Source: an uncultured Chloroflexia bacterium (GTDB taxonomy: Bacteria > Chloroflexota > Limnocylindria > QHBO01). From it: a DNA stretch of 64,000 bases. Where the stretch lies: assembly GCA_963767985.1 (NCBI GenBank), contig CAVYGE010000006.1, forward strand, positions 169 through 64,168, read 5' to 3'. The notes beneath the pieces were generated by a model that was not told the DNA's origin, did no database searches, and saw only the letters and a list, made by a program, of their open reading frames with translations. The translations under genes and the position numbers were made by a program. This document shows positions 1-20,919 of this stretch, one piece after another. Positions within the stretch are counted from its first letter, which is position 1, and the number at the start of each line of letters is the position of its first letter.

Positions 1-986
1 CGACCCGCCGCCCGCCCCCCCCCCCTTGGCGTCGATGGACAGGTCGGGCCCATGGGCCCCGGTGACATAGGTGCGAAAGAGGTGGGCGATGCGGGTGCGG
101 GCGCCGTGATGATCGCGGTCGTCGGTGAGGCGCTGCAGCACCCGCGACGCCACGATGCCGCCGCCACGCAGCAGCACGGTGCCCTCGTGAGTTGCAGCTC
201 GCGGTAGATGTGCTCGTGCGGCTTGTACGGTTGACGCCCGGCCGTAGTCGCGGTGCCGTTCGTCGGTACTCCTGCAGGTCGGGCAGGAACTTCACGCCCG
301 GGTAGCCGACGGCGACGTGGCGACCCGCTGCGGTACGCGTACCCGCCGGGGTGGCAGTGGCCCCCTCCGGTGGGGTGAGGATGGTGGAGTAGCCACCGCC
401 GATCCGGCGGCGCACCATGCGGACCTGCCCGTGCATGCACGGCCCCCGGTAGCCGATGCGGTGGTACGCCTCGGGCCATGGCTCGGAACACGTGCCCGGC
501 CTTTGGCGTGTAGTAGTCGGTCAGGATCGGCTCGGTCAGGACGTTCCAGAGCGGGGCAGGAACTTCGCGACGTTCGTCGTTCTCCGAACGCCTCGCGGCA
601 CGTGCGTAGCTGGGGAAGCCCCAGATGTTGTCCGGGTCGACGCGGAGTCGCTCGCGGCCGTTCGTTGCGCGGGATCTGCGACACGCGAGTCAGGTACTTG
701 TAGCGTGTCCCACGGCTGCTCGAGCTGGGTGAGGGACTCGACGGGACGGGTACGCACCCCGCTAGATCCGGAGGTAGTCGACGGTGACGAACGAGCCGAT
801 GCCGCCGCCGATGGACACGAACGGGACGTCGATCACCGGGATGCCGGCGGCGGCGACGAGCTCGTCGGTCCACACCGACGTCGCCAGCAGCTCGTCGGTG
901 AGGTCGCCATGGCCAGGGCGCGCCACCTCGTCGCCGTCGTTGACCAGCGTCGAGCCTGGTATCCGAATCGTCTCGCCGAAGTCCAT
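1..986 (-). CDS. putative FAD/NAD(P)-binding oxidoreductase, N-terminal part; cut by window edge and frame-broken
   Basis: ATG at 986. N-terminus MDFGETIRIPG...VIDVPFVSIGGGIGSFVTVDYLRI carries a GGGxGS dinucleotide-binding loop. There is a stop at 762, but protein-like coding continues in other minus frames (...DNIWGFPSYA...LTDYYTPKAGHVF). Confidence 0.3.
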
Positions 987-1003
987 GGGTTCCGCCTCGG
1001 TTC

Positions 1004-3140
1004 TCAGTCTCGCATCTTCGGCTCTGCGGGCGCCCCGGTCCGCCGTGCTGCGAGCCCGTCGAGCAGCTGGTCGAGCCGATCGTCGGCGCCAGCCTCGCTG
1101 TCGCGCTCGGCCCGGACGGCGAGCACTGGCGCGTTCGGCACGACCGCACCGGGTCGGCCGAGCGCGTACAACGACGAGGCTCACCGTGGTGGGGATCGGC
1201 TCGCGGCCGCGGACGACCGTCGCCTCGAACCCTGCCTTGGGGGCCCGCTCGGCGAGCCGGCGCACCCGACGCGGCACGCGGCCGGTCGTGACGCACACCA
1301 CGAGGCCCCGCCCGTCGCGAACCGCGAGTCGGGTGGCCAGCTCGAGCGCCGTGGATCCGTCAGCGCTGTCGGCGTGCACGACCAGGACCGGCCCGGCGCC
1401 GGCCGCGCCGCCCGCGGGCGTGAGCAGCGCGACCGTCGCCGGCACGTCAAGTATCAGCCGGTCGTCTCGCCCTCGGGCGCCGACTCGTCGGTCGCGACGA
1501 GCACAACGTCCGGCTCGGTAACGACCGCCTGGTCGATGAGGTCTTGGGTGGTGTCTGCCGCGGAGTGGGTGCGGACGATGCAGGGAGCGCCGTGGCCCGG
1601 TGATGCGCGCCTGCAACCGATCGAGCTCGTCGCTGGTGCGAGCCAGCTCGGCCAGCTCGCTCACCAGGCTGCTGCCCAGCTCGAGCGGCGCCGCAGTCAG
1701 CGTGCGGGTGAGGATGACCTCCGCCGGCTGCTCGCTGGCTCCCAGGTCGCGCGCCAGCGAGACGACGGCTTCGGCGCTCGGAGAGTCATCGACGACGGCC
1801 AGCACCCGGTAGGCGTCGACGGCCGAGCGCGGCCTTGGCCGCTTCGGCGACGTCGTGGCGCAGCAGGCGGTCGGGGTAGACGACGCGCAGCAGCGGCTCG
1901 GTCATGACCGTCGTGACGACCGCCATCACGACGAGCATCGTGAACAGCTGGTCGTCGAGGACGCCGAGCTCGCGGCCGACGTCGAGGATGACGAGCTCGG
2001 TCAGGCCTCGCGTGTTCATCAGCACGCCGATGGCGCCGCCTTGCGGGCGCGTCGATGCCCCGCGCCCGGGCGCCCGCCGGCGGCGCCGACGAACTTGCCC
2101 GCGCAGGCCACCAGCAGGATGAGCGGCGAGCCGCCGAGGCGCGTCGGCGCCGAGCCCCCGAATGTCGACGTCGAGCCCGGTGACGATGAAGAACACCGGC
2201 AGCAGCAGGAGCACGCTGACCTGCTCGAGCCGCTCGAGGATCTCGTGGAACAGCTCGTGGCCGTGTCCTCGCGGGGCATGACGACGCCGAACAGGAAGGC
2301 ACCGAAGATGGAGTGGATGCCGATCTTCGAGTGATGAAGGCCGAGACCAGGAAGCCGACGAGGACGACGGCCAGGATGTCCGGGGTCAGCCGGCCGCCTT
2401 GCGGTAGCGCCGCGGCCAGCGCGCTCGCAGCGGGGCCGCACGACGACGAACATGACGCCGACGAAGACGATCGACTCGACCAGGATCCTCGGCGAAGGGC
2501 CCAGATGCCTGCCGCTCTCGACGACGGCCAGGACGACCGCGAGCAGCGACCAGGCGATGATGTCGTCGACGGCCGCGCAGGCCAGCGTGAGGGCGCCGAG
2601 GGTCGTGCGGTGCATGCCGCGCTCGGTGAGGATGCGGGCCAGCACCGGGAACGCGGTGATCGACATCGACGCCCCGATGAACAGCGCGAACGGGCAGCGC
2701 ACCTCGCCGCGCCTCGGGACCGTGCCGTGGGACCCGTGGAGGACGAAGCGGCAAGCACGATGCCGAGCCCGAACGGGCAGCGACGATCGACGCCAGCGAG
2801 ATCGCGGCGGCGATGCCGCTCGCTTGCCCCGGATGAGCTTGAGGTCGAGCTCCAGGCCCACGATGAACATGAAGATGACCAGGCCGAGCTGGGCCAGCAC
2901 CTTGAGGAACGGGCGCACGTCGCCGGGGAAGAGCGTGTCGGGCAGGTCGCCGCGGAGAGCACCGAGCAGGGTCGGCCCCAGCACGATGCCGGCGATGATC
3001 TCGCCGACGACCGCCGGCTGGCGGATGCGCCGGAACAGCGTCCCGACCAGGCGCGTCGCCACCATGATGATGGCGATGTCGATGAAGACGATCGCCGCGA
3101 TCTCGTCAGGTTTCAGCGCCGCCGTCACGGGTGGGATCAC
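1004..3140 (-). CDS. cation:proton antiporter (CPA2/Kef-like) with C-terminal regulatory extension; several frame breaks
   Basis: GTG start at 3140. MIPPVTAALKPDEIAAIVFIDIAIIMVATRLVGTLFRRIRQPAVVGEIIAGIVLGPTLLG, ...ASMSITAFPVLARILTERG..., ...LLLLPVFFIVTGLDVDI..., ...MNTRGLTELVILDVG... are spread over three minus frames. Stop TGA at 1004-1006 after frame correction (..AEPKMRD*). Confidence 0.75.
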
Positions 3141-3252: not shown

Positions 3253-4069
3253 GTGCACACCATCGACCTAACGGGCATCGCTGACTACACGTTCGTCGAG
3301 CGGCTGGGCCAGGGCAATCACGGCTGGTACTTCCGTGCGGCGCGGCCCCCTCGCCCTCGCGCACACGAATGCAGAGCACGTGGCCGTGAAGGTCTTCGGC
3401 CTCCTCAGCACCTCCGGCGCGGTAGACCGGGCCATACGTGGAGCTGGAGCTGTTCGCACGGGTTCCTTCGCCGCACCTTGCGCGGCTCTACGACGCCGGG
3501 CGGGAGGGCGAGCGGTTCTACTACGCCATGGAGCACTTTCCGATTGGCTCGCTCGCCGCGGCCGGGCCCGAGCTCGACCGTGACGGCCGCGTTGCCGCTG
3601 TGCCGCGACGCGGCCAGGGCCGCGCACGACTTGCACGAGAAGGGAATCGTGCACCGCGATATCAAGCCGTCGAACGTGATGCTCACAGACGCCGGCGCCA
3701 AGCTGTCCGACCTCGGGCTGGCCCACCTGCTCGCGCAGGGCCGCGGAGGTCACCAGCATGGCGGCGGAGGTGCAAATCCGGAGTACGTCGATCCGAGGCT
3801 GGTCGACGGGGCCGCGCCGTTCCGCCGGTCGGACATCTGGTCGCTCGGCGTGACCCTGCACTGGGCGCTCACCGGCGACTCGCTCTACGGCGACCTTCCC
3901 GACAACGACCCGCTGTTCGCGGCGCGGGAAGATGCGCTCGACGCCGCCGCAGGTCGCCGAGTCCGTACCGCCCGCGGCACGAGAGTTCGTGCTCGCATGC
4001 GTCGCAGCCGCTGGTGCGGACAGACCGGCGACTGCGGCCGAGGTGGCAATGGCGATCGAGGCGTTGTAG
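3253..4069 (+). CDS. Hanks-type Ser/Thr protein kinase 1 (frame breaks in N-lobe)
   Basis: GTG 3253. G-loop ERLGQGNHGWYF, VAVKVF (alternate frame), catalytic loop HRDIKPSNVML, LSDLGLA, SDIWSLGVTLHWALTG. Corrected C-terminus ..ATAAEVAMAIEAL with TAG at 4067-4069. Confidence 0.8.
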
Positions 4070-4140
4070 CGCCTCGTGGTCAGGTGGAGCGCGGCGGCCG
4101 GCGCAGGGGTGACCGCGGTAGTCTCCGCGAAGGAGGGCCA

Positions 4141-4970
4141 GTGGCCGCGACCACGGCGGAGGGGACGCTGGTGAGGCTTGCGGGGGACATCGGGATCGCC
4201 GGGATCACCAACGCGGCGGAGATCGCCCGAGGTGGGTCGGCCATCGTCTACCGCGCCTTCAGACGCGTTTCGACCGCGACGTCGCGGTCAAGGTCATCGC
4301 GTTCAGTGACGACGTCGTGCAACGCCGGTTTGCCCGGGAATGTCAGGCGATCGGTCGACTTCGGGACTGCGAACATCCTCCCGGTGCACCACTCCGGTCT
4401 CACCGCGAGCGGCAACCCCTACCTGATCATGCCGTTTCTCGCCCAGGGGTCACTGGAGACGCAGCGCCAGCAGCGCGGCCCGCTCGACTGGCGAGAGGTC
4501 GTCCCCATCGGCGTGAAGATCGCCACACCGCTCGAGCGAGCCCATGCGGCGGGCATCCTGCACCGCGACGTGAAGCCGGCGAACATCCTCATCGGCGGCG
4601 ATGGCGAGCCGTTGCTGCGCCTCGACTTCGGCCATCGTGTGCGACATGGATGCCACCCACTCCGTGGTGCGCCGGTCACTCCGTCATACGCGCCGCCTGA
4701 GGCATGGAGCGGCGGCGCGCCCACGCCGGCGCGCGATGTGTACTCGCTCGGCGCAACCTTGCATGCGCTCCTCCTCGGCCATCCGCAGTTCGGCGCGGTC
4801 GACGCCGCGAGCAATGCCGGCGACGTCGCCACGACAGTGGCGCAGGAGACGCCGTGGGACCTTCGCGCCCAGAAGGTGCCCAACGCCGTCGCCGCCGCGG
4901 TCGAGCACGCCATGGCCAAGGATTGGGGGCGCGACCCGCGTCGGCGGCGGCGTTTGCCGACGAGCTCGGT
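4141..4970 (+). CDS. Hanks-type Ser/Thr protein kinase 2 (frame breaks); no stop before the downstream vWA domain
   Basis: RBS GAAGGAGG lies 5 nt before GTG 4141. Motifs RGGSAIVYRAF, DVAVKVIA (shifted), NPYLIMPFLAQGSLE, HRDVKPANILI, LDFG, TPSYAPPE, DVYSLGATLHALL. The tail RPASAAAFADEL is reached after a frame switch at the tggggg run near 4921-4926. Confidence 0.8.
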
Positions 4971-5705
4971 GCGGGCGGCCGAGACGGCGCGGGCGGACAG
5001 GACACGCCGGACGATGAGGACAACCGCACGCTGCCGTCTCGCCCCGGTGGGCAGATCAGCAGCCGGCAGCTGCACTTCATCTGGATCGCCGACTGCTCGG
5101 GCTCGATGTCAGCGGGTGGAAAGATCCAAGCGCTGAACAACGCGATCCGCGAGACGATCCCACACCTGCGTGACATGGCGCGCCAGAACCCGTACGCGCA
5201 GATGTTCGTGCGGGCCATTGCGTTCTCGAGTGGAGTCACCTGGCACATCGCCGATCCCGTCCGCATCGAAGAGCTCAAGTGGCACGACCTCTCGGCCGGC
5301 GGGCACACCGACATGGGTGCGGCCCTGCGCGCGGTCGCCGACGGGCTCAAAGCGCCGCACATGCCCGAGCACGCGCTCCCGCCCGCACTCGTGCTCGTCT
5401 CCGACGGCCAGCCCACCGACGACTTCGCCAGCGGGCTCCAGGCCCTCCTGGCTGAGCCGTACGGAGCGAAGGCCGTGCGCCTGGCGATCGGCATCGGTCG
5501 CGACGCCGATCTCGAAGTCCTCGACCGGTTCATCTCCCATCCGGAGATCCGAGCGACCACCGCCAACAACCCGGAGCAGCTGGTGCGCCTGATCCGGTGG
5601 GCGTCGCGTGCCGTGTCGAGCTTGGCATCCGTCGTGCGCAATGGAGAGAGCGGGGTGAAGGTGCCGCAGCAGCCGACCGATCCGAGCGAGCACGACACGT
5701 GGTGA
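4971..5705 (+). CDS. TerY-like von Willebrand factor A (vWA) domain protein, possibly the C-terminal half of kinase 2
   Basis: MIDAS-type motif LHFIWIADCSGSMSAGGKIQALNNAI, then ..GGHTDMGAAL.., ..LVLVSDGQPTDD... Stop TGA 5703-5705. No ATG/GTG/TTG in this frame between the kinase tail and the MIDAS motif. Confidence 0.8.
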   Translation, partial: AGGRDGAGGQDTPDDEDNRTLPSRPGGQISSRQLHFIWIADCSGSMSAGGKIQALNNAIRETIPHLRDMARQNPYAQMFVRAIAFSSGVTWHIADPVRIEELKWHDLSAGGHTDMGAALRAVADGLKAPHMPEHALPPALVLVSDGQPTDDFASGLQALLAEPYGAKAVRLAIGIGRDADLEVLDRFISHPEIRATTANNPEQLVRLIRWASRAVSSLASVVRNGESGVKVPQQPTDPSEHDTW

Positions 5706-7321
5706 CCGCGACCGGAGCCGACCGCTGGCACGTGCTGGCTGCCACCGCGCTGGGCTCACGCCACGTCGCGACCGGCGCGCCGAACCAAGACGCGTTCTCG
5801 GTGGTACCGGGCGTGGGCGCCCAGGCGCAGTGCGTCGCCGCCATCGCCGACGGCCACGGCGGGGCTCGATACTTCCGCAGCGAAACGGGTGCTCGGTTGG
5901 CGGTCGACATTGCGGTCGACATCGGCGGTTCGCTCCTCGAGGCGCTCGACGCGCCCACCACCAAGAAGTCCGCGCTCGGGCTCGGAGACGCCGCCACTCG
6001 CATCGTCCAGCGATGGAGTGAAGCGGTGCGCGCCGATCTGGCTGCTCATCCCGTCGGCAACGATGAGCTGGCGGCCGCTGGCGTCGCACGCGAGGAGCAC
6101 GACGCCGACGATCTCCGCACCTACGGCGCCACCCTGCTGCTCGCCGTGATGGGTGGCGCCGGGCTTGTCCTGCTCCAGATCGGCGACGGCGACATCGTCG
6201 TCGTCGACCTGACAGGCAGGGTGACCGAGCCGGTGCCGGGCGATCCCGCGCTCGTCGCGGGTGAGACCACGTCGCTCTGCCTGCCCGACGCGGCGAGCAG
6301 CTTTCGGAGCATGGTGCTCGACACCACCGGTGGCCGGGCCCCGGTGCTCGTGCTGTTGTCCACTGACGGCTTCGGCAACTCCTACGCCGACCGGGCGGCG
6401 TTCCACTCGTTCTGCACCGGTGTGCTCGAGCGAGTCGCGGAACGTGGGGTGGCGTCGGTCGAGGCCGATCTGCCCAGCTGGATCGCAGAGAGCGCACGGG
6501 TCGCCGGCGACGACGTCACGGTGGTCGCACTGCTCGATACCGCTTCAGCACCCGCGTCCGCGAAGGCCGCGGCGCGGGCCGCGGCGGACCGCACCGTCGC
6601 GGTGCCGACAACCGCGGCGGCGCCGCCCGCGGGTGCGCCGCCGCCGAGCGCTCCTCCGCGCCAAGCGAGGGCCGCACCGTCACCCAGGGGTTCGGGCGCC
6701 GGCGCCGCACCGCCGTGGACCATCGTCGCGGTCGCCGCGATCGTCCGCGCTCTTGCTCGGGGTCGTCGTTGGGCGAGCGACGAAGAAGACAAACACGGCC
6801 GCCACCACCGCCACCACCACGCCGCCAGCGACCACAACCGCCGGGGCTGGCGCCGGCGCGACGACGGTGTGGCTGCCGACAGCACGAGGCTTGATCCAAG
6901 TCGAGCCCGGCGCCCCTCCCGCGCTCTCGTCCCCGGCTTGGCCAACGCGCCAACTGATGCCGTGACCGTGCGTGGTGCGCTCTGGCTGGCCGCCGGACGG
7001 TTGGTGTTTCCGCAGGGGCAACGGGGCGACGCGCTTGAGTTCCCGGCCACAGTCACGAGCGTCGGCACCGACGGAATCGATGTGTGGGTCGCGCTCGCCG
7101 ACGGTGGCGTCTTTCGCATCGATGCCGCCCAGCGCTGCACCAGCTACGCAGGTGCCGTCGCCGCGACCACGGTCACCACCACGACGAGCCAGCCGCCCGT
7201 GGCAACGGGAGGCCAACCCTCCGGTGGTGCGCCGTCGCAGAGCCCGAGTCCGACGACGGTGGCTCCGGCGGCAGTGGCGCCCAACGAGCAGGTGGCCGAG
7301 AACCCATGTCCGGGCAGCTGA
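5702..7321 (+). CDS. PP2C-family Ser/Thr phosphatase with Pro/Ala linker, probable TM helix and C-terminal ectodomain
   Basis: GTG 5702 overlaps the vWA stop (GTGA). Motifs NQDAF, IADGHGGARY, LLQIGDGDIV, LLSTDGFGNS, DDVTVV. A hydrophobic stretch (WTIVAVAAIV / ALLLGVVVG) is visible only if two compensating frame shifts between about 6745 and 6960 are assumed. Confidence 0.8.
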   Translation: MTATGADRWHVLAATALGSRHVATGAPNQDAFSVVPGVGAQAQCVAAIADGHGGARYFRSETGARLAVDIAVDIGGSLLEALDAPTTKKSALGLGDAATRIVQRWSEAVRADLAAHPVGNDELAAAGVAREEHDADDLRTYGATLLLAVMGGAGLVLLQIGDGDIVVVDLTGRVTEPVPGDPALVAGETTSLCLPDAASSFRSMVLDTTGGRAPVLVLLSTDGFGNSYADRAAFHSFCTGVLERVAERGVASVEADLPSWIAESARVAGDDVTVVALLDTASAPASAKAAARAAADRTVAVPTTAAAPPAGAPPPSAPPRQARAAPSPRGSGAGAAPPWTIVAVAAIVRALARGRRWASDEEDKHGRHHRHHHAASDHNRRGWRRRDDGVAADSTRLDPSRARRPSRALVPGLANAPTDAVTVRGALWLAAGRLVFPQGQRGDALEFPATVTSVGTDGIDVWVALADGGVFRIDAAQRCTSYAGAVAATTVTTTTSQPPVATGGQPSGGAPSQSPSPTTVAPAAVAPNEQVAENPCPGS

Positions 7322-7358
7322 TGCGCGATGGACAACATGAAGGCGAAGGCGAGCATTG

Positions 7359-9221
7359 ATGAGTGAGCTGCGAATCGAGCTCGGCGGCCAGCGGATCACG
7401 GTCGCGCCCGGCGCGGTGGTGACGATTGGACGCGAGCCCGACCGCGACATCCGATCCGACAACCCTGCGGTCTCGCGCCGCCACGGCGAGGTGCAGTACG
7501 ACGGCGTCAGCTGGGTGTACAGCGACGCCAACAGCACCGGTGGCACCTACCAGGGAGGACAGCGCGTCACCCGGGTCGTGCTCACCGGGCCGGCCGAGCT
7601 GTGGCTCGGCGCACCGTCGGAGCCAGGCGACCGGCTGCGCCTCGAGCCGGTAGGCGTAGGCGGCGGCGGGCGGGCCCCGCTCGATCGCACGGTCGGGCCG
7701 ACGCCCGCCGGCGACACTTCGCTGCGTCTGCGCTTCGGTGTGCACGACGGTGTCTACAGCCCGGGCCAGGTCATCACCGTTGGGCGTGCACCCGAGTGCG
7801 ATCTCACCACCGACAACCCGCTCGTATCCGGGCACCACGCTCGCATCCTGTGGTCGGGGGGCCAGTGGACGCTCGAGGATGCGGGGAGCAAGCGCGGCAC
7901 CTACGTCGGTGGGCGCAAGGTCCGCAGCACCCGTCTGGGTGGGGCCATGACCGTGTGGTTCGGGCCACCCGAGGCGGGCGAGAAGCTCACTGTCCTCACC
8001 GGGGGCGAGGCGCCGCGCACACCGGCGTCGGTTCTCCGCCCGTCGGTGGTGGCCGGTGCCGCGCTCGTGCTCGCCGCCGTGGCCGTGCTGGTGGTGGTGT
8101 TCCTCGGAGGCGGAGACGATGACGAGCTCGACGTTGCTGCGCTGCGGCGAGCCACTGTGCTGGTCTCGGAGGAGGCGAGCGACCCGACGAGCTGGGGCAG
8201 CGGCAGCATCGTGTCGGCCGATGGACTCGTGCTCACCAATGCCCACGTTGCCGCGCCGGCGGCGCCCGGCCGCGGCGTCAGCCAGCGCGAACCTGTGTCG
8301 GAGCGGAACCCGGCCCGCCTCTACATCTACGTGGTGGAGGACGAGGACGCACCGGCGCGGCCGGCGTACACGGCCAAGGTGATGGCGGCCGACGGGTACC
8401 TCGACTTCGCGGTCCTGCAGATCGACCGGACCGCGGCCGGAGATCCAGTCGACCGCAAGAAGCTCAAGCTCCCTGCGGTCAAGCTCGGTGATTCGCGCGC
8501 GCTCAAGGTCGACGAGGACCTGCTCGTTCTGGGCTTTCCTGGGATCTCGGAAACACAATCGATCAACGTCTCCCGAGGGGTGGTCTCCAGCTTCCTCGTC
8601 GATGAGCGGGTTGCCGGTCCCCGCTCATGGATCAACACCGACGCCACCATCAGCCCGGGGAACTCAGGGGGTCTGGCCGCCGATCACCGCGGTCGGCTGG
8701 TGGGCGTCCCGACCCTGGTTGTCGCCGAGCGGTCCGGAATCCCGCTGACGATCGGCCGGCTCCGGCCCATCCACCTCGCGCAGCCGGTCATCGACGCGGC
8801 CCGCCGCGGCATCGCGTACGACCAGAACAAGTGGGTCAAGCAGCCGACCGGGGACGAGAGCTTCGACTACGAGGGTGTTCTCGACACCGACGCGGAGCAG
8901 TGCGAAGACCGTGCGTTCGTCGGCTACCGCTCGGGCACGCCGGTCATCAACACCCAGCTGCGGTACTCCGGCATGACTGAGGACCAAGAGGTCTTCTTCG
9001 GATTGCACCAGGTCCGGGGCACGACCCTGGTGCTCGTCGACAGCGTCGCGGCGCGGTGGGAGGACTCTGATGCTGCGGGCTGCCTGTTGGTGGCGTTCCG
9101 CAACATCGGGACGGGCGGTGTGCAACGGCCGTTCCCCGATGGCACGTACAAGGTGCTTGTGCAGGCCGGCCCCAACTACGAGACCCAGCTCGCCGAAGGC
9201 GACGTCGACGTGGGTGGGTGA
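7359..9221 (+). CDS. FHA-FHA-TM-trypsin-like (S1, Trypsin_2-type) serine protease with extra C-terminal domain; intact ORF
   Basis: Two FHA cores (VTIGREPDRDIRSDNPAVSRRHGEV...; ITVGRAPECDLTTDNPLVSGHHARI...). TM helix VVAGAALVLAAVAVLVVVFLGG. Catalytic triad contexts LTNAHV, DFAVLQI, ISPGNSGG. About 150 aa of unassigned C-terminus. Confidence 0.85.
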   Translation: MSELRIELGGQRITVAPGAVVTIGREPDRDIRSDNPAVSRRHGEVQYDGVSWVYSDANSTGGTYQGGQRVTRVVLTGPAELWLGAPSEPGDRLRLEPVGVGGGGRAPLDRTVGPTPAGDTSLRLRFGVHDGVYSPGQVITVGRAPECDLTTDNPLVSGHHARILWSGGQWTLEDAGSKRGTYVGGRKVRSTRLGGAMTVWFGPPEAGEKLTVLTGGEAPRTPASVLRPSVVAGAALVLAAVAVLVVVFLGGGDDDELDVAALRRATVLVSEEASDPTSWGSGSIVSADGLVLTNAHVAAPAAPGRGVSQREPVSERNPARLYIYVVEDEDAPARPAYTAKVMAADGYLDFAVLQIDRTAAGDPVDRKKLKLPAVKLGDSRALKVDEDLLVLGFPGISETQSINVSRGVVSSFLVDERVAGPRSWINTDATISPGNSGGLAADHRGRLVGVPTLVVAERSGIPLTIGRLRPIHLAQPVIDAARRGIAYDQNKWVKQPTGDESFDYEGVLDTDAEQCEDRAFVGYRSGTPVINTQLRYSGMTEDQEVFFGLHQVRGTTLVLVDSVAARWEDSDAAGCLLVAFRNIGTGGVQRPFPDGTYKVLVQAGPNYETQLAEGDVDVGG

Positions 9222-10556
9222 CGAACGCCATGTTGCAGGAGGGTGCCGACGTCCAGCTTCTCGGATGGGGCACGAACGCGTCGATCACGAGGTGGCTGGG
9301 CGAGGGCAGCGAGGGGACTGTCTGGGAGGTCGAGGTGGGCGGCGCCGCCGAACCGCTCGCGCTCAAGTGGTATCACCCCGAGCGGGCTACGCCGCTCAAG
9401 CACCGCACGATTGAGCTGCTCATCGAGCGGGGGAACCCACACGAGCGATTTCTGTGGCCGCTCGATCTCGCGACCAGCCGGTTGAGCCCGGAGTTCGGGT
9501 ATGTCATGCCGCTGCGCGCCCCTCAGTACAAGGGTCTCGTCGAGCTGATGTGGCGCGACCGGGACGAGATCAAGCAGGTGACGTTCGCGTCGCTGGCCAC
9601 CCTTGGGCTCGAGCTGGCGCATGCGTTCCTGCTCCTACACAACCAGGGCCTCTGCTACCGCGACATCAGCTTCGGCAACGTGTTCTTCGACCCCGCCACC
9701 GGGTCGACCCTCGTCTGCGACAACGACAACGTCGGCATCAACGGCAGCAGCGACTCCGACGTGGCCGGCACGTTCCGGTTCATGGCACCGGAGATCGTGC
9801 GTGACCGCAACGTGGTGCCGAGCACCGAGACCGACCTGCACTCGCTCGCGGTGCTGCTGTTCCACGTGTTCATGGTCCACCATCCCTTGGAGGGCAAGCA
9901 GGCGCTGCAGTATCCCGTGCTCGACGAGATCGCCATGGAACAGCTCTTCGGGCGGAAGCCAGTGTTCGTCTGGGATCCCGACGACCGCAGCAACGAGCCG
10001 GTCCCCGGTCTGCACGACAACGCCATTCGGTACTGGGGCATCTACCCGCAGTTCCTGCCGCGATCGGTTCACCGAGGCGTTCACCGTCGGACTGCACGAC
10101 CCGGGGAACGGGCGGGTCCGCGACGGCCAGTGGCGGGCGGAGATGGCCCGCCTGCGCGACGCGATCGTTCGGTGCCAGGCATGCGGCGCCGAGGCGTTCT
10201 ACGACGACGCCTCGGCGAAGCCGCTGACGTGCTGGGTCTGCTTCAAGCCGATCCGCCTGCCCCCATTGCTGCGCATCGGCGATCGGGCGCTCATGCTCAA
10301 CGCGGGCACGCGCGTCTACAGCCACCACCTCAGACTCGACTACGACTTCACCACCGCGATCGCCGATGTGGTCGAGAAGCCCGACGCACCCGGCACCTGG
10401 GGTCTGCGCAACCTCGGACGCGACGCATGGTCGGCGGACGTCGGCGACCGCAAGGCGTTGCCCATCGCCCCAGGCCGGGCCGTGCAGATCGGGCCGCGGA
10501 CTCGCGTGTCGTTCGGGCCCGTGCGGGGCCGCTTCGAGTTCCCCGGCACAAGCTGA
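9218..10556 (+). CDS. atypical protein kinase-like protein with Zn-ribbon and FHA-like C-terminus (one frame break near 10050)
   Basis: GTG 9218 overlaps the protease stop (GTGA). Motifs LGEGSEGTVWEV, ALKWY, YRDISFGNVFF (HRD to YRD), VCDNDNV (DFG to DND), FMAPE. After the frame switch: CQACG..x..CWVC, then LRIGDRALMLNAGTRVYSHH...WGLRNLGRDAW. Confidence 0.7.
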
Positions 10557-10587
10557 CCCGACGCCGCTAGACGTCGGCGGCCGCGGC

Positions 10588-11733
10588 TCACTTTTCGAAG
10601 CCGCCAGACGTGTTCCACAAGTCGAAGACGATGTTCTTGTTGCCGTCTTTGCGGAACGCCACGATCGTGATGTTTGGGTCATCGAGTGTGAACACGAGCC
10701 ACGCGCCGGCGGCGTTGCCGTGCACGAGCCGCCGGCCGATCGGACGCCCGGGGTCGGACGTGAAGATCCAGTCCCGCTCGCACGAGGTCGTGCGGCACGT
10801 GTCGTTCGATCCAGTGTTGAACGGTACGCCGCTCTGTTGGACGCGGGCGGTGTAGTCCGCGGACTGGGCGCCGTCGCTGCCGAACTTGTAGAGCCATGCG
10901 GTGGTGTAGGCCTCGGCGGTGCAGCTGATGGCGCCGTTCGCCCCGGTCGGGAGCGCAGTCTCCTGCATGCACCTGGGGAACCGGGGCGGGTCGCCGACAA
11001 CGTGGTTGAGGAGCTCTTGCTCGACAACGGACGGGTTCCAGCTCGGGCGGGGTGCGGCGGTGGTGCGGGTCGTGGTGGTGGTGCGCGATGTGCTGGTGGT
11101 GTCGACCACGGGGGTGGTCGTGTCCGTCGCGATCTCGGGATCGGGACCGAGGATCGCGTACGCGATCACGCCGATGGCGACCAGACTGAGCACGGCGAGG
11201 GCCGCGAGCAACCCGACGGGGCGGCGAGGCGGGGGCTCGTCTGGTTGGCGTTGCTGGCCCCAGTCGCCACCCCAGTGACCCGGCTGCTCCGGCGGGCGCG
11301 GTTGCTGAGGCGGTGGGACCTGAGTCGAGCCGACCCCGCCGTCCGGCGGTCCCTGCGGTCCTCGCGGCCGTTGCCCCGGCCCCGGGCCCGGTGGCGGCCC
11401 GGGGCGCGGTGGTGAAGCCGCCGCACTGCCAAGGGCGACGGCCCACGTGCGCACGGCCCAGTCGGCCATGTCGGCGCTGAGTCCGCGTTGCTGCACCAGG
11501 CGCGCCGTGAGCTGCTCGATGCGGGGCCCGATCGGTGTCGATGAGCGCATGAGCTCGCCTGGCACCTGCTCTTCGACGGCGCCGAGGAGGACGGCGACGT
11601 GGGGCCCGCCCTCGGGCCACACGTCGCGGAACAGCGCGGCGCAGCGGCGAGGGTCGTCAGCGAGCCCGGCGCCGTACTGGGCGAGCAGCTCGCGTAGCGT
11701 CGCGGCAGCCTGAGCGGGATCGGTCGGCGGCAT
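10588..11733 (-). CDS. membrane protein, paralogue 1: conserved cytoplasmic head, Pro-rich linker, TM, Thr-rich stalk, 4-Cys ectodomain
   Basis: Intact 381-aa ORF. ATLRELLAQYGAGLADDPRRCAALFRDVWPEGGPHVAVLLGAVEE...; TM GLLAALAVLSLVAIGVIAYAIL; ectodomain with 4 Cys. Confidence 0.7.
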   Translation of the reverse strand: MPPTDPAQAAATLRELLAQYGAGLADDPRRCAALFRDVWPEGGPHVAVLLGAVEEQVPGELMRSSTPIGPRIEQLTARLVQQRGLSADMADWAVRTWAVALGSAAASPPRPGPPPGPGPGQRPRGPQGPPDGGVGSTQVPPPQQPRPPEQPGHWGGDWGQQRQPDEPPPRRPVGLLAALAVLSLVAIGVIAYAILGPDPEIATDTTTPVVDTTSTSRTTTTTRTTAAPRPSWNPSVVEQELLNHVVGDPPRFPRCMQETALPTGANGAISCTAEAYTTAWLYKFGSDGAQSADYTARVQQSGVPFNTGSNDTCRTTSCERDWIFTSDPGRPIGRRLVHGNAAGAWLVFTLDDPNITIVAFRKDGNKNIVFDLWNTSGGFEK

Positions 11734-11764: not shown

Positions 11765-12898
11765 TCACTTCGTGAACGTTCCGTTCAAGAACCACATGTC
11801 GTAGACGATCTGCTTGTTCCCGTCGTTGCGAAACGCGACGATCGTGATGTTGAGGTTGTCGAGTGTGAGGACCAGCCACGTGCCCGTGGCATCCCCGTGG
11901 ATCAGTCGTCGCCCGATCGTCACCTGCTGGCCGCCGTGGCGCCAAGGCCCTTCGCATCCCGACCGAGTGCATGCCTCGTTGCCGACGCCATAGTCGCGCG
12001 GCAGTCCACTCTGCTCAACGCGCGCCGTGTAGTCGGCCGCGTGGAGATCATCGCCACCGAACTTGTAGAGCCAGGCGCGCGTATAGGTCGGCGAGGTGCA
12101 CGTGATGGCAGCGGTGGCACCAGTTGGCACTCCTGGTGCGCGCTTGCACGCCGGAGACTGAGGTGGATTGCCGACTACGTGGGCCAGCAGCTCGTTCTCG
12201 TCTTGAGTCCACACGGGCGCTGCCGGTGGTTTGACGACGGTGGTGGTCGTACTCGTGCTCGTGGTCGTGGTCGGATCGAACGGCTCAGTGGTCGTGTCGG
12301 TCGCGACCTCTGGATCCTTGCCACCGAACGTCGCGAACGCGATCACGCCGATGGCGATGAGACCGAGCGCAGTGAGGGCCACGATCAAGCCAACGGGGTG
12401 TTTGGGCTGCCGATCGACGGGCCGGCGCTCTGGCGGCCACTCGCCGCCCCAGTGCCCGGGTTGCTGTGGCTGGCGAGGTGCCTGCGGCGGTGGAACCTGC
12501 GTCGACGCGACCCCACCGGCCGGTGGTCCCTGGGGCCCAGGAGGGCGTTGCCCCGGCCCCGGTAGCGGCCCGGGGCGCGGTGGCGCCGGTGCCGCGCGGC
12601 CGAGGGCGACGGCCCACGTGCGCACGGCCCAGTCGGCCATGTCGGTGCTGAGCCCGCGTTGTTGGGCCAGACGCGCCGCCAGCTGCTCGATGCGGGGTCC
12701 GATCGGCGTCGACGAGCGCATGAGGTCGCCGGGGACTTGCTCCTCGACGGCCCCGAGCAGCACGGCCACGTGCGGCCCGCCTTCGGGCCACACGTCGCGG
12801 AACAGCGCGGCGCAACGTCGAGGATCGTCGGCCAGTTCCGCGCCGTACTGCGCGAGCAGCTCGCGCAAAGTCGCGGCGGGATCGGTGGGGGGCGGCAT
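11765..12898 (-). CDS. membrane protein, paralogue 2 (tandem duplicate of 10588-11733)
   Basis: ATG at 12898 chosen by alignment with paralogue 1 (MPPPTDPAATLRELLAQYGAELADDPRRCAALF...). Same domain order and the same 4 Cys positions. Confidence 0.7.
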   Translation of the reverse strand: MPPPTDPAATLRELLAQYGAELADDPRRCAALFRDVWPEGGPHVAVLLGAVEEQVPGDLMRSSTPIGPRIEQLAARLAQQRGLSTDMADWAVRTWAVALGRAAPAPPRPGPLPGPGQRPPGPQGPPAGGVASTQVPPPQAPRQPQQPGHWGGEWPPERRPVDRQPKHPVGLIVALTALGLIAIGVIAFATFGGKDPEVATDTTTEPFDPTTTTSTSTTTTVVKPPAAPVWTQDENELLAHVVGNPPQSPACKRAPGVPTGATAAITCTSPTYTRAWLYKFGGDDLHAADYTARVEQSGLPRDYGVGNEACTRSGCEGPWRHGGQQVTIGRRLIHGDATGTWLVLTLDNLNITIVAFRNDGNKQIVYDMWFLNGTFTK

Positions 12899-13027: not shown

Positions 13028-14017
13028 CTAGGCGTGAACGTGTTGTGTCCAGCAGTGCAGATGCACGAAGCGGCCACAGACGTCGCACCGCTGCACGGTG
13101 GCGAGCATCGGTTCGCGGCAGACCGGGCAACCGGTGTCGACCTCCTCATGGCTGCCGCCGCCACCGAGGGGGATGGTGGGCGCGGCCGCAAGGGTCGCAG
13201 GCTCGTCGAGCGGGCGACCGAGGAGCGGCGCGAGCACCGTCAGGGCGGCGGCGGCGAACGCGTCGAGGTTCGACAGCTCGGGGTGCTGGCCGAAGTTCTC
13301 GTGGAGCCCACTCGGCGCGAAGAGGCAGAAGTAGAGGTCGTCGTGGCTGTCAGGCATGCCCTCGAGCGCGGCGATGGCAACGATCTGCCCTTGGTCGTAT
13401 GCGACGCCAAGCGCGCTGTAGCTGATTGGCCCATCGGCAACGGGAGCGGTCCAGATCTCGACCCACGAACGAGCCGGCAAGGCCGGGGCATCGTCCGCCT
13501 CGATGGTGTCGACGATTCGCCAGCTGCGCAGGCGCGGCGTGGCACCGCTGGTCGCGGCTCTGGTCGCGACGTAGGCCTGGAACGGGCCGTGCTGGGCGGC
13601 CTGCGTGCGGCCCGAGTCGATACCGGCGCGTGCGTCGGCGCGACGGCGCAGGACTGACTCTGTCTGGGCCCGCACGAGCGTGGGCCACCCCTCTGGTCGC
13701 GAAGGCATCGGACCGAACCGGCTGGTTGCGCCATCGTCGGTGTACAGCTCGGTGAAGCTGTCGCGGTCGCGCGTGTTCCGCGATGCACAGCGTCGACCAG
13801 CGGCCATCGGGGTTGACCAGCGCCCACCCGTCGGTGAACCGGCCGGATGGTTCCACGATCTCGCCGAGCACCAGCACGTGCTCCCCTGGATCGGTGAGGC
13901 CGGGGTGCTCGAAGCGCTCGACGACGCGAAGGGCAGACACCCCCACGTCGGCGTTCCGGGCCCGCAACGCCGCGAGCTCCGGCGGAGGTTCGGAGGACTT
14001 GCGGCGGAGAAAGCTCA
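13028..14017 (-). CDS. hypothetical protein with C-terminal Cys/His zinc-finger-like motif (one frame break near 13770)
   Basis: Probable GTG at about 14017 (VSFLRRKSSEPPPELAAL...). C-terminus ..GCPVCREPMLATVQRCDVCGRFVHLHCWTQHVHA. I do not recognise a family. Confidence 0.45.
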
Positions 14018-14470: not shown

Positions 14471-14715
14471 TGCCTCCGAATCGCCCAGAATGCCCGTCGT
14501 CACCCCGTCGACGGTAACCAACCCAAGCTTCGGTCCAAGACGCGAAACCCGGCAGGACTGAGCGTGAACGTCAGCGAACTCTTGACCCAACAAGTCGCAG
14601 GTAGGCCCATCGGGCGGCGCTGGGGCCGTCCGGTTGGCTGGGCGGCGGCTCGGCCGAAGCTGGCGGCTCAGCACGGTGCAGGCAAGACCGGCTGATGCCG
14701 GAAGGAGGCTGATCG

Positions 14716-15918
14716 GTGGCGCAGATCCGAAGCGGACGACACGTTCGCGTGCGGACCCTGCTCCCAGGGATCGTCGCCGTCGCCACCGTTGTCCTGCTGC
14801 ACGCGGTGGCCCCGCTGTCGAGCCCGACGACCCACCTCGCCGGCGCCGGACCCGCGTTCAGCGCCAGCGACCAGAGCCAATCGGCCCAGGCTGGACGCGA
14901 TCTGGCGGCCGCCGCCGGCCAGGCGGCCGACGGCTCGGCCACCAGCACGCCGGCCACCGCCGCCGGCCCCACGCTGGTCCCGACCCCCGATCCCACGGCG
15001 CCGGCCGCCCTCGCCGCGCCGACGCCACCGCCCGCGGCCAAGGGCGAGCGGTTCGAGGCGCCCCCCACCGACCCGGTCGTCCTCGCCGAGCCCTCCTCGC
15101 CGCCGCCACGGCCGAGCAGTCGAGCGGCGGCCTCGGGTCGTGGCGTGTGGGCGGTCGTGGTCGGCGTGGACGACTACCCGGGAAGCAACGACCTTCAGTC
15201 GGCCGTCAACGACGCCAACGACGTCGACGCCGCGCTCGGGCTCTACCAGGTGCCGGGCACCCAGCGGCTCCTGCTCCGCAACGGCTCAGCCCGATCGGGC
15301 GACATCCTGGCCGCCGTCGACTGGCTGGTGGCCAATGCCGGCCCCGAGGCCACGGCGGTGTTCTTCTACGCGGGCCACGTCCGCCAGGTGTCGCGCGGCG
15401 TCGAAGGGATCGTCGCATCCGACGGGCGCGTCGTCACCGACGCCACGTTGGCGTCGCGGCTGCGCAACCTCGCGGCCCGCCAGACCTGGATCACGATCGC
15501 CGGGTGCTTTGGCGGTGGCTTCACCGAGGTGCTGGCGCCGTCGCGCATCCTCGTTGCCGCCGCGCCGGCCGGCGTCTACGCCTACGAGAACGAAGGCTTC
15601 GGTCGCTCGTACCTCGTCGAGTACATGGTGCGCAGGGCGATGCTCGCCGGCTACGCGCCCGGCTCGGTGCAGGAGGCCTACGCCTGGGCGTACAACCAGC
15701 TCCAGCGCGATTACCCCAACCGCATGCCGGTGGCCTACGACCAGTCGGGCAGTCCGATCCGCCTCGGTCCCTCCGGCCCGCCGAACCCGGCGCCGCCGCC
15801 TCCGGCCCAGCCCGGCCAACCGCAACCGACGTCGCCGCCCCCGCCGACGACAACCCCGCCCACGACGACGCCACCCAGCTGCCGGGGCATCGTGGTCATC
15901 GGTCACGGCTGCTCGTAG
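14716..15918 (+). CDS. exported caspase-fold (clan CD, C14-like) peptidase with Pro/Thr-rich C-terminal tail
   Basis: RBS GGAAGGAGG precedes GTG 14716. N-terminal hydrophobic segment LLPGIVAVATVVLLHAV. VVVGVDDYPGSNDLQSAVNDANDV, His context FFYAGHV, Cys context TIAGCFGGGF. Tail PPPPAQPGQPQPTSPPPPTTTPPTTTPPSCRGIVVIGHGCS. Confidence 0.6.
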   Translation: MAQIRSGRHVRVRTLLPGIVAVATVVLLHAVAPLSSPTTHLAGAGPAFSASDQSQSAQAGRDLAAAAGQAADGSATSTPATAAGPTLVPTPDPTAPAALAAPTPPPAAKGERFEAPPTDPVVLAEPSSPPPRPSSRAAASGRGVWAVVVGVDDYPGSNDLQSAVNDANDVDAALGLYQVPGTQRLLLRNGSARSGDILAAVDWLVANAGPEATAVFFYAGHVRQVSRGVEGIVASDGRVVTDATLASRLRNLAARQTWITIAGCFGGGFTEVLAPSRILVAAAPAGVYAYENEGFGRSYLVEYMVRRAMLAGYAPGSVQEAYAWAYNQLQRDYPNRMPVAYDQSGSPIRLGPSGPPNPAPPPPAQPGQPQPTSPPPPTTTPPTTTPPSCRGIVVIGHGCS

Positions 15919-17815: not shown

Positions 17816-17972
17816 CTCCTTGATCTCAGCTGCCGGCCGTCCCAGGACGCGCCTCGGATTTGGTCCTGATTGTAGGCCAGCCCGCGGGATCGAAGAAGGG
17901 TGTTACCACCCATTTCGAGCGGGGTGCGTCCACCCCAGGCTCGCGACGTGAGGCTCGCTTAGAGCGAGAGAG

Positions 17973-18057
17973 CGGAGGGAGTGGGATTTGAACCCACGGT
18001 GACTTGCGCCACACACGCTCTCCAGTCGTGCCGATTCGGCCGCTCTCGCATCCCTCC
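17973..18057 (-). tRNA. tRNA-Ser (anticodon GGA), long variable arm, CCA not encoded
   Basis: Reverse complement GGAGGGATGCGAGAGCGGCCGAATCGGCACGACTGGAGAGCGTGTGTGGCGCAAGTCACCGTGGGTTCAAATCCCACTCCCTCCG. 7-bp acceptor stem, TTCAAATCC T-loop, anticodon loop CTGGAGA (one A/G mismatch at the stem base). Confidence 0.8.
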
Positions 18058-18104
18058 AACGTGCAGCGGGACACGCTGAGCGTCGAGTTCTTCGCAGTCA
18101 GACC

Positions 18105-18230
18105 GCCGGCTCGTGCGGCGGCCGGGTCCTGCGCAACGGGACGCCGTGAACCGAGTCAGGGCCGGAAGGCAGCAGCTCTCAGCGGATAGTCCTGTGTGCC
18201 GCAGTCAGCCTGGCCGCCGCACCGGCCGGC
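18105..18230 (+). ncRNA. ffs: signal recognition particle RNA (small bacterial SRP / 4.5S-type)
   Basis: Long hairpin: 5' GCCGGCTCGTGCGGCGGCCGGG pairs with 3' CCTGGCCGCCGCACCGGCCGGC. Conserved domain IV string GUCAGGGCCGGAAGGCAGCAGC. Sits between tRNA-Ser and dnaX, the usual position. Ends are approximate. Confidence 0.75.
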
Positions 18231-18254
18231 TCCGCTTCGTACTTGTCGGGGCCC

Positions 18255-19943: not shown

Positions 19944-19954
19944 GAGCTCACCCC

Positions 19955-20297
19955 GTGTCGAATCAGCCCGATCTGAGCGGCCTCCTGAAGCAGGCGCAGC
20001 AGATGCAGGAGCAGCTGCACGAGCGTGCAGGCCGCGGCCGCGGCGGCCGTCGTCGAGGGGCACTCCGGTGGTGGCGCGGTGCGCGTCGAGGTGTCCGGCA
20101 CGATGGAGTTCCGCGCCGTGCACATCGACCCGAAGGTCGTCGACCCCGACGATGTGGAGATGCTCGAAGACCTCGTCCTCGCCGCGCTGCACGATGCCAC
20201 CGCAAAGGTGCACGAGCTGTCGGCGCAGGCAATGCCCGACCTCGGTGGTCTGGGCGACCTGGGGGGCCTCGGCGGCCTCCTCGGTTCGCCAGGGTGA
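19955..20297 (+). CDS. ybaB: YbaB/EbfC-family nucleoid-associated protein (one frame break)
   Basis: GTG 19955. [21 protein letters not shown], then (shifted) ..[50 protein letters not shown]. Confidence 0.85.
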
Positions 20298-20919
20298 CGG
20301 GCTACGCCGGTCCCGTCCAGGATCTGGTCGACGAGCTCGGGCGGCTCCCCGGCATCGGCCCGAAGTCTGCGCAGCGCATCGCCTTTCACCTGCTGAAGCT
20401 CTCGCGCGACGACGCGCTGCGGCTGGCACACAGCATCACCGAGGCCAAGGACCGCGTGACGTTCTGCACGCGGTGCTTCAACGTGGCCGAGGGTGCCGCG
20501 GGCGAAGCCGAGTGCATGATCTGTCGCGACGACCGGCGCGACGCCACCACCGTCTGCGTCGTCGAGGAGCCGCGCGACATCGTTGCCGTCGAGCGCACCA
20601 ACGAGTTCCGCGGTCGCTACCACGTCCTCCTCGGTGCCATCAGCCCCATCGAGGGCATCGGCCCCGACCAGCTGAAGGTGCGCGAGCTGATCGCCCGGCT
20701 CGAACCCGAGGGCGTGCAAGAGGTGATCCTCTGCACCAACCCCAACATCGAGGGGGAGGCGACGGCGATGTATCTGGCGCGCTTGCTCGACCGCTCGGCC
20801 TCCGGGTCACGCGCATCGCATCCGGACTGCCCGTCGGCGGCGACCTGGAGTACGCCGACGAGCTCACGCTCGGGCGGGCCCTCGAAGGCCGGCGCGACGT
20901 GGAGGCGGGTCAGAGCTAG
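20294..20919 (+). CDS. recR: recombination protein RecR (one frame break near 20790)
   Basis: GTG 20294 overlaps the ybaB stop (GTGA). [20 protein letters not shown], Zn finger [15 protein letters not shown], Toprim [16 protein letters not shown], shifted C-terminus [27 protein letters not shown]. Confidence 0.9.

Follow-up and report, generated by a model that had tools for sequence, protein, structure and literature searches.

What does a bacterial phosphorylation triad act on? Triads of the TerY-P / YegI-PphC-YegL type, in which a vWA protein, a PP2C phosphatase and a Ser/Thr kinase are encoded together, are widespread. The question is raised anew by a 64-kb stretch of contig CAVYGE010000006.1 from an uncultured Chloroflexia bacterium (hereafter the window, ~70% G+C), the + strand of which encodes, between positions 3253 and 10556, two Hanks-type kinases, a vWA domain, a PP2C phosphatase, a membrane-anchored serine protease with two FHA domains and a further, unusual kinase. 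A first-pass annotation made from the sequence alone had read these six components as a linked Thr-phosphorylation cassette of a composition not described before. As we show below, the genes do form a functionally linked cassette rather than a set of chance neighbours, and what distinguishes it most is the membrane serine protease with its FHA domains. We propose that the locus encodes a membrane-associated Thr-phosphorylation switch of the TerY-P / YegI-PphC-YegL kind that is extended by a dedicated protease output module, a reading to which we give roughly an even chance of being right.

Both Pfam and direct reading of the sequence bore out the six same-strand components, at the positions and with the junctions that the first-pass annotation had given (Table 1). 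Pfam places two Pkinase domains within a single open reading frame (ORF), 3253–5136, and the GTG start of kinase 2 at 4141 is preceded by GAAGGAGG at 4129–4136. Further downstream the genes are packed closely: the vWA stop and the PP2C start overlap in GTGA (5702–5705), the PP2C stop (TGA, 7319–7321) is separated by 37 nt from the ATG of the protease gene at 7359, and the protease stop overlaps the GTG of the last kinase in a second GTGA (9218–9221). For this last gene, ATG 9230 fits the N-termini of the orthologues better as a start than GTG 9218. The two GTGA overlaps, together with the 37-nt gap, count as tight coupling in the window. The stop of the last kinase gene (10554–10556) is followed by a short inverted repeat and then by a convergent gene; a promoter and terminator scan, uninformative overall, found no terminator-like site on the + strand inside the cassette.

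Table 1. Features of the window discussed in the text: cassette and companion genes first, flanking features after them.
Feature	Position	Strand	Basis or remark
Hanks-type kinase 1, stand-alone domain of ~272 aa	3253–4069	+	Pfam; four frame breaks as assembled
Hanks-type kinase 2	4141–5039	+	VAVKV, HRDVKPAN, DFG, APPE; about five frame breaks
TerY/YegL-like vWA domain, complete MIDAS	5040–5705	+	weak Pfam vWA matches; homology
PP2C phosphatase	5702–7321	+	PF13672 (PP2C_2), E=1.8e-34; catalytic domain 5702–6541
FHA-FHA-TM-S1C (HtrA-like) protease with C-terminal Ig-like domain, intact, 620 aa	7359–9221	+	Pfam
Triad kinase, YegI/TerY-P type	9218–10556	+	Pfam Pkinase, E=2e-13; one frame break near 10050
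Intergenic gap between convergent genes	10557–10587		inverted repeat CCGACG...CGTCGG; the + strand run closes here on the right
Companion membrane protein, copy 1, intact	10588–11733	-	translation; weak tblastn matches
Companion membrane protein, copy 2, tandem paralogue, intact	11765–12898	-	translation; tblastn, 12602–12892
Two-Rossmann flavoprotein-like homologue, frame-broken	52–995	-	tblastn with L024_559 and L082_529; three frames, 33–54% identity
Na+/H+ exchanger gene	2019–3140	-	between flavoprotein-like homologue and kinase 1
ORF without family match	13028–13807	-	between companion genes and tadA
Caspase-like (Peptidase_C14) protein	14713–15918	+	PADLOC 'caspase' model, E=1.4e-10; beyond tadA
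NAGPA (phosphodiester glycosidase) and CWB2 cell-wall-binding gene	22327–25775	-	split near 24700

The core of the cassette is a triad of a kind that has already been described. The TerY-P triad, as defined by Anantharaman, Iyer and Aravind (2012) and summarised in PMC11090510, consists of a TerY-like vWA protein, a PP2C phosphatase and a Ser/Thr kinase with a C-terminal Zn ribbon, and is described there both as a probable switch working by phosphorylation and as a module that is attached to other systems. That triads of vWA, PP2C and kinase go by the name TerY-P, as the first-pass annotation had noted, is confirmed by the same source, and the window holds all three architectures, adjacent to one another and conserved together: a vWA domain with its MIDAS, an adjoining PP2C and a kinase with a CxxC...CxxC Zn ribbon. 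Compared with the TerY-P triad, the window adds the FHA-FHA-transmembrane (TM)-HtrA-like protease, a companion membrane protein and an FHA-fold domain in the kinase, whereas neither ter genes nor restriction-type partners are present at this locus.

The vWA domain is matched weakly by Pfam (VWA_2, E=2.8e-5, below the gathering score). Its MIDAS residues are nevertheless intact: besides DCSGS, which had been picked out in the first-pass annotation, the T in GGHTD and the D in VSDG are present. The protein is 42–56% identical to the stand-alone vWA proteins of 217–266 aa that are found in all related loci, and JGI names these homologues YegL. The C-termini of the triad vWA proteins carry a short conserved motif, located in the window at 5688–5702. 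Across the loci compared (the window, L001, L003, L011, L062, L083–L085, L087 and L088), its variants are DTW/TTW/VTW in the window and L001, VVW/LAW/LVW in L011 and L088, NQDTII in most loci of the arrangement that we call type A and DPIWSTLG in most of those that we call type B (both defined below). This conserved tail is a candidate docking or phospho-acceptor site. Among the vWA homologues (P0245–P0256, P0263 and P0275) there are also relatives of approximately double length, for which the doubled scores suggest a tandem vWA-vWA arrangement, as well as a 763-aa vWA-PP2C fusion and a fusion of vWA to a CHAT protease, all of them additional links by fusion in systems of this kind.

The PP2C phosphatase displays the metal-binding motifs DGHGG, GDGD, TDG and GDD. 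After its catalytic domain come a linker rich in Pro and Ala, a probable TM helix, a stretch rich in Thr and a small β-rich domain, and the protein is probably membrane-anchored; among its relatives, the PP2C of L084 (427 aa) has a C-terminal TM helix, and that of L087 is also long (463 aa).

Which of the three kinases serves the triad? The first-pass annotation implied that the Hanks kinases were its writers, and this did not hold up: the writer is the downstream kinase, which has the triad kinase of every related locus as its orthologue. This 445-aa protein is built from a kinase domain, a helical linker, the Zn ribbon and an FHA-fold domain, and is 40–47% identical to intact orthologues of 433–464 aa. 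The same annotation had called this kinase atypical and degenerate. The first adjective stands, as the motif DND is found where DFG is expected and is invariant in nine orthologues. The second does not: in the alignment of these nine orthologues K50, the YRDISFGN catalytic loop, the DxDN in place of DFG and the APE motif are all invariant, and the β3 Lys, the catalytic Asp and the Asn are thus retained. The Escherichia coli kinase YegI, which carries DSD where DFG would stand, is active all the same (bioRxiv 10.1101/819920). As the catalytic residues are kept and YegI is active with its DSD, we read the triad kinase, from its residues, as unusual but not degenerate.

In the C-terminal part of the triad kinase, three of the four Zn-ribbon cysteines (C319, C322 and C338) are invariant in both the 9-sequence and the 41-sequence alignments. 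The AF2 model of the C-terminal 168 residues (pLDDT 90.8) comprises helices, the Zn ribbon and a β domain, and Foldseek matches the latter to FHA domains (probability 1.0, target TM-score 0.6–0.69). Phosphopeptide binding by this FHA-fold domain appears doubtful, because only the His and the Asn of the FHA signature are invariant. The kinase family is large, with more than 3000 matches at E≤1e-10; its members are named 'DNA-binding helix-hairpin-helix protein with protein kinase domain' by JGI.

Two described systems contain the same triad. The first is YegI-PphC/YegK-YegL of E. coli, the kinase of which shares the DxD motif (DSD in YegI, DND here). While YegI is a kinase that crosses the membrane twice, the window kinase is soluble, with the catalytic loop YRDISFGN and orthologues of 433–464 aa: no hydrophobic segment was found in the 445-aa protein or in its orthologues. 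Furthermore, the E. coli yegL-pphC-yegI operon lacks an FHA-protease. The second is an actinobacterial set reported in section 29 of Kaur et al. 2020 (PMC7159879), in which a kinase with a Zn ribbon and a β-strand-rich domain, a PP2C and a stand-alone vWA protein occur within GAP1-N2 GTPase systems. The description of the three proteins given there matches the window exactly, and its 'β-strand-rich domain' corresponds to the FHA fold seen here. Pfam detected neither a GTPase nor an FNIII domain in the window ORFs scanned or in the annotations of related loci, GAP1 having no model that could be tested; the part of PMC7159879 that concerns this set makes no mention of an FHA-protease.

Of the cassette proteins, the protease is the most distinctive. 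The intact 620-aa FHA-FHA-TM-trypsin-like protein predicted in the first-pass annotation was recovered as such by Pfam (two FHA domains and Trypsin_2, E=2.8e-23), and an identical 620-aa protein is present in a public collection (P0001). Both its catalytic and its phosphopeptide-binding residues are intact. In 25 homologues, the catalytic triad H296/D349/S436 is invariant, as are R25/H42 of the first FHA pocket and R143/S157/H160 of the second, with S39 kept in at least 90%; the cysteine pair C515/C575 is likewise conserved in at least 90% of the 25. The closest homologue is just ~40% identical, so every comparison is between distant relatives. By sequence, the nearest solved relatives are DegQ, DegP, AlgW, DegS and PepD, a group that includes regulated envelope site-1 proteases. 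Pfam finds no PDZ domain in the protease: the C-terminal 151 aa are modelled instead as a generic immunoglobulin-like (Ig-like) sandwich in the place of the PDZ (pLDDT 93.8). The TM helix is preceded by Arg residues and followed by acidic ones, from which we predict that the FHA domains are cytoplasmic, while the protease and Ig-like domains are located outside.

Having identified the components, we asked whether their association extends beyond the window. The vWA, the PP2C, the Zn-ribbon kinase and the FHA-FHA-TM-trypsin protease occur together in 16 further loci, all actinobacterial. With the protease as bait (a scan of one genome per species with the alignment of the protease, after which the window proteins were run in tblastn), nine of the 13 untruncated actinobacterial FHA-protease loci carry adjoining triad genes; one of these nine, L001, has two vWA genes, a PP2C and a Zn-ribbon kinase next to the FHA-protease, and in another, L003, no PP2C was detected. 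With the kinase as bait, the FHA-protease was present in five of the six loci fetched. Two more FHA-protease loci, in which the protease is of the form that carries a helical domain (L088 and L089), contain vWA and PP2C genes.

The order of the genes differs between loci. In type A the order is protease > companion > vWA > PP2C > kinase, with every gene pointing the same way. Type B reads Hanks kinase > companion, then < PP2C < vWA, then kinase > protease. The window represents a third order, and there are also variants that contain an FtsK gene. The cassette proteins are 35–55% identical between loci, and the survival of the gene set through rearrangement at this level of divergence is strong evidence of functional linkage. 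The first-pass annotation had declared its proposal void should the association prove not to be conserved in relatives; it is conserved, in at least three gene orders, and the linked Thr-phosphorylation cassette thus stands, the gene set recurring in the 16 further loci. Could the adjacency of these signalling genes still be fortuitous? Actinobacterial genomes are rich in kinases, FHA proteins and proteases, and kinase 2 of the window has no orthologue in the related loci; set against this are the recurrence of four to five families in 16 further loci and at least three orders, and a domain fusion that joins two of the families. We consider a fortuitous adjacency extremely improbable: it is contradicted for the core genes and is possible for kinase 2 alone.

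The fusion in question involves a component that the first-pass annotation, correct as to the six it named, had overlooked: a conserved companion membrane protein, encoded in two tandem copies on the opposite strand directly downstream of the triad kinase gene. The companion consists of a cytosolic N-terminal helical domain, a Pro-rich linker, a single TM segment, a Thr-rich stretch and a Cys-containing ectodomain, and matches no Pfam, NCBIfam or PADLOC model. Copy 1 is hit weakly in tblastn by the companions L083_439, L082_508 and L084_282 (E 0.002–0.007), and the matched region of copy 2 is hit by the 440-aa companion of L001 and by L084_282. Of the 12 triad loci tested, 11 have a companion next to the triad, and the number rises to 14 if L085–L087 are counted on gene size and position. 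Among the triad loci tested, only L011 lacks a companion gene of its own, and in this locus the N-terminal helical domain of the companion is found immediately upstream of the FHA region. The N-terminal helical domain of the companion is fused to the N-terminus of the protease in 18 of 120 protease homologues, and copy 1 of the window matches the N-terminal extension of one FHA-protease, P0017, in BLASTP (E=1e-6). By virtue of this domain fusion, companion, protease and triad are linked.

Neither the coupling of the triad to an FHA-protease nor the companion is mentioned in the literature that we searched, from which the founding 2012 TerY-P paper was absent; for this combination of domains, Kaur et al. 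2020 was the only relevant work that came up. Thus, while the triad as such was already described, contrary to the view that no system of this composition was known, two features of the locus are apparently new: the conserved coupling that joins the triad to an HtrA-like membrane protease whose two FHA readers are intact, and the co-conserved single-pass companion membrane protein.

The two Hanks kinases require separate treatment, as neither is open as assembled. Kinase 1 has frame shifts near 3346, 3436, 3590 and 3930, as judged by the GC3 frame plot and three-frame translation, and its motifs GQGNHG, VAVKV, HRDIKPSN and DLG are spread over successive frames. Once frame-corrected, both kinases give full-length Pfam matches, and in this sense the domain calls in the first-pass annotation were sound: the stitched kinase 1 covers positions 1–254 of the 263-position Pkinase profile (E=1.1e-28) and the stitched kinase 2 covers 5–252 of 263. 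Intact orthologues of kinase 1 (264–317 aa) exist in type-B loci, with 35–39% identity over the full length and 46–53% in the C-lobe; being seen in only this one arrangement, kinase 1 is an accessory gene. No orthologue of kinase 2 was found in the related loci; its best matches suggest Acidimicrobiia. Correcting the G5 run at 4925 leaves kinase 2 open into the vWA domain with no stop between them; the vWA domain lacks its own start codon, and ATGA occurs out of frame at 5014–5017. Among the 120 best homologues of the stitched protein there is no kinase-vWA fusion, and kinase 2 and vWA may either form a true fusion or be separated by one more hidden indel.

Is the cassette then a decaying relic that does not function here, its kinases and other genes being real pseudogenes? 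There are ~9 frame breaks in 1.85 kb of kinase sequence, a single one in the last kinase and probably two more in the tail of the PP2C ORF (6540–7321), near 6730 and 6860, around the TM helix. Moreover, only two breaks fall on 5-nt homopolymers, namely C5 at 3346, the first break of kinase 1, and G5 at 4925 in kinase 2. The same pattern, however, is seen in a gene that cannot be dispensed with: in the N-terminal part of the essential gene dnaX (17950–18760, ~8 kb downstream) the frame breaks at least four times within ~600 bases, and each of the fragments keeps perfectly conserved motifs. The NAGPA/CWB2 and Na+/H+ exchanger genes are split likewise. The stitched kinase segments are free of internal stop codons and retain all catalytic motifs. 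Finally, related long contigs bear flye-style names and one of them shows a split protease gene, which fits long-read assemblies with residual indels. We conclude that assembly indels, and not gene decay, account for the frame breaks of both Hanks kinases, because the essential dnaX is broken in the same manner within the same window; the pseudogene reading is rejected on this ground, and we regard a relic as very unlikely. Genuine decay of kinases without intact orthologues elsewhere had been named in advance as fatal to the proposal; intact orthologues of kinase 1 do exist, and the dnaX control marks the breaks as technical. Few clean long ORFs are found across the whole 64 kb, where indel errors are many and unevenly spread, and any pseudogene call in the window is therefore unsafe. 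This carries a practical warning: in this assembly, pseudogenes are mimicked by frame breaks.

How might the components work together? In the mechanism that we propose, the triad kinase, here together with two extra Hanks kinases, would write phosphothreonines on one or more cytosolic partners, candidates for which are the kinase itself, the vWA protein and the cytosolic domain of the companion, and the PP2C would erase these marks. The two N-terminal FHA domains of the protease would read the marks at the cytoplasmic face of the membrane, and this reading would dock the protease to, or cluster it with, the complex and so license the HtrA-like domain on the outer face. The most likely client of the protease would be the ectodomain of the co-conserved single-pass companion. 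We infer the direction of phosphorylation, the activation of the protease through its FHA domains and the identity of the substrate from architecture and gene linkage, and the role of such a switch may lie either in envelope signalling or in conflict.

Several observations weigh against this reading. Four FHA-protease loci (L005, L006, L023 and L025) have no triad within 10 kb and one triad locus, L084, has no protease, so the coupling is frequent and not obligatory. The sample of loci is biased, as most were fetched with the protease as bait, and the less biased estimate of co-occurrence rests on the six kinase-bait loci. The companion tracks the triad and not the protease: it is present in the protease-less L084 and may accordingly be a partner of the triad rather than a substrate of the protease. 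No sigma factor or other obvious downstream effector is found in the window. Lastly, several cassette genes are frame-broken as assembled, and their intact expression rests on the assembly-error argument made above. As a separate observation, the triad and companion genes of L084 (1–3524) adjoin an fhaA-fhaB-pstP-rodA cell-wall signalling cluster.

The layout that we propose for the switch has a counterpart in the DegS/AlgW-RseA/MucA systems and in mycobacterial HtrA/PepD/MarP: as in those systems, the S1C domain of the window protease lies outside the membrane on an N-terminal TM segment. The likeness to DegS/RseA extends to the single-pass partner, with its cytosolic N-terminal helical domain and its ectodomain. 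In contrast to DegS-type proteases, an Ig-like sandwich replaces the PDZ domain, and the input would come from cytosolic FHA domains, not from periplasmic peptides. No sigma factor gene was found near the companion and protease genes, and the cytosolic domain of the companion has no family assignment.

The logic of the switch resembles that of another system. The threonine phosphorylation pathway of the Pseudomonas H1-type VI secretion system (H1-T6SS) comprises PpkA, a kinase-vWA protein, the PP2C phosphatase PppA and the FHA protein Fha1. The window shares with it the combination of writer, eraser and FHA reader with a vWA domain, and kinase 2, which reads into the vWA once frame-corrected, would give a PpkA-like order, the fusion itself being uncertain. 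In the window, unlike in H1-T6SS, the FHA reader is fused to a protease, and the vWA is cytosolic, with no TM segment between kinase and vWA. No T6SS family is represented among the neighbours that could be identified (Na+/H+ exchanger, companions, tadA, caspase-like gene and dnaX), and membership of a T6SS-like system was rejected for want of adjacent T6SS genes. The locus therefore resembles DegS/RseA in layout and PpkA/PppA/Fha1 in logic, and belongs to neither family.

A role in secretion of another kind has to be weighed: the cassette could be an accessory of a type VII-like secretion system (an FtsK/EssC-like ATPase with WXG100 proteins), in which the protease would play a mycosin-like part and phosphorylation would gate secretion in the way that PpkA/PppA/Fha1 gate the H1-T6SS. 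In L011, L088 and L089 the protease gene directly follows a gene for an FtsK/SpoIIIE-family ATPase of 1333–1361 aa, itself flanked by vWA genes and with WXG100 genes and PP2C upstream, and the cassette of L001 is neighboured by WXG100 genes and an FHA-FtsK ATPase. The CoCoNuT paper, moreover, reports FtsK/WXG100 cassettes inserted between TerY-like vWA genes. In tblastn searches, however, neither an FtsK/EssC-like nor a WXG100 homologue was found in the 64-kb window or, within flanks of 8–10 kb, in the 12 type-A and type-B loci, and the protease has a trypsin fold, whereas mycosins have a subtilisin fold. With FtsK and WXG100 absent from the 64-kb window, we do not assign the cassette to the mycosin-like, type VII family, and consider a secretion accessory decidedly unlikely. 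The FtsK-type loci (L088, 1–12539; L089, 1–12491; L011, 1–13409; L001, 11979–19479) have an EssC-like ATPase, and an EmbR-like regulator (Trans_reg_C, BTAD and FHA) is encoded downstream.

A second alternative places the cassette in bacterial immunity, as a conflict or anti-phage module in which the TerY-P-like triad would sense infection or attack and the protease would act as an abortive or defensive envelope effector. TerY-P-like modules do act as stand-alone anti-phage systems, and triads are found attached to restriction-type systems (PMC11090510); the actinobacterial set of kinase with Zn ribbon, PP2C and vWA in section 29 of PMC7159879 is described within conflict systems. In addition, a caspase-like gene is located 4 kb away from the cassette, and L001 has a WXG100 gene and a toxin-like Endonuclease_NS_2 gene as neighbours. 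These hints are not borne out by the defence models: at E≤0.01, no PADLOC family matches the vWA or the PP2C, whether from the window or from L082; the Zn-ribbon kinase is hit by the kinase-containing models PD-T4-6 and mad6 alone and the protease by protease-containing ones alone, none of these being TerY-P. For the other kinases and the caspase-like gene, too, the models hit are generic kinase and caspase ones. The validated anti-phage TerY-P of the type of Gao et al. 2020 has its kinase fused to a C-terminal OB fold (PMC11090510), whereas the window kinase ends in a Zn ribbon and an FHA fold. Given the lack both of a PADLOC family for vWA and PP2C and of an OB fold, the locus is TerY-P by architecture and not a member of the tested defence family. 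The setting, too, speaks against a defence module: neither the genes annotated by Pfam in the related loci nor the window ORFs scanned include an integrase or a gene of a mobile element, the genes on either side are housekeeping ones (tadA and dnaX-ybaB for the window, recR-ybaB-dnaX for L089, leuCD for L087), and the cassette is kept across genera at 35–55% identity, like a vertically inherited chromosomal module. We therefore consider a defence role unlikely. The caspase-like protein itself has an N-terminal hydrophobic segment and Pro-rich regions.

Returning to the protease-coupled switch, its wider form would be an inside-out mode of regulated proteolysis in Actinomycetota, in which marks set by kinase and phosphatase and read by FHA domains switch on cleavage of a single-pass partner outside the cell, with some lineages having plugged the module into an FtsK/WXG100 secretion apparatus; this generalisation is tentative, possible but short of probable. 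That the protease is licensed by phosphorylation is our inference from the pairing of intact FHA readers with a conserved triad. If correct, it would mean that cytoplasmic Ser/Thr phosphorylation gates an extracytoplasmic protease of the HtrA type, of which we know of no described bacterial example. Such gating would bear on envelope homeostasis, secretion control and possibly defence in actinobacteria. The study of YegI noted that both the substrates and the activating stimuli of such bacterial kinases are largely uncharacterised (bioRxiv 10.1101/819920). For one branch of the triad family, the loci analysed here offer a concrete output, and the question is directly testable in cultured Nocardioides or Trebonia strains, carriers among them being Nocardioides sp. 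TF02-7 (NZ_CP092535.1, 3.346–3.368 Mb), N. silvaticus and Trebonia kvetii 15TR583.

The remaining genes around the cassette are of less certain relevance. In Nocardioides-type loci a flavoprotein-like gene of 529–559 aa is located upstream of the kinase 1 orthologue, in divergent orientation, and a frame-broken homologue is found near the left end of the window; the gene is peripheral, and whether it belongs to the system is uncertain. Neither this flavoprotein-like gene nor a 247-aa gene has an NCBIfam or Pfam family. In L085, as in the window, a Na+/H+ exchanger gene lies near the cassette. On the other side, the ORF that separates the companion genes from tadA has at its end a zinc-finger-like motif rich in Cys and His, CPVC...CDVCGRFVHLHC, and, in the NAGPA/CWB2 gene, the downstream part is in one open frame with a thiolase gene, so that a spurious ORF of 819 aa results. 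Finally, in the window the cassette lies within ~10 kb of dnaX-ybaB (18000–20300), while in Nocardioides terrigena (L089) no more than ~10 kb separates the FHA-protease locus from recR-ybaB-dnaX (18192–20358); this shared proximity to dnaX-ybaB may reflect an old common chromosomal position.

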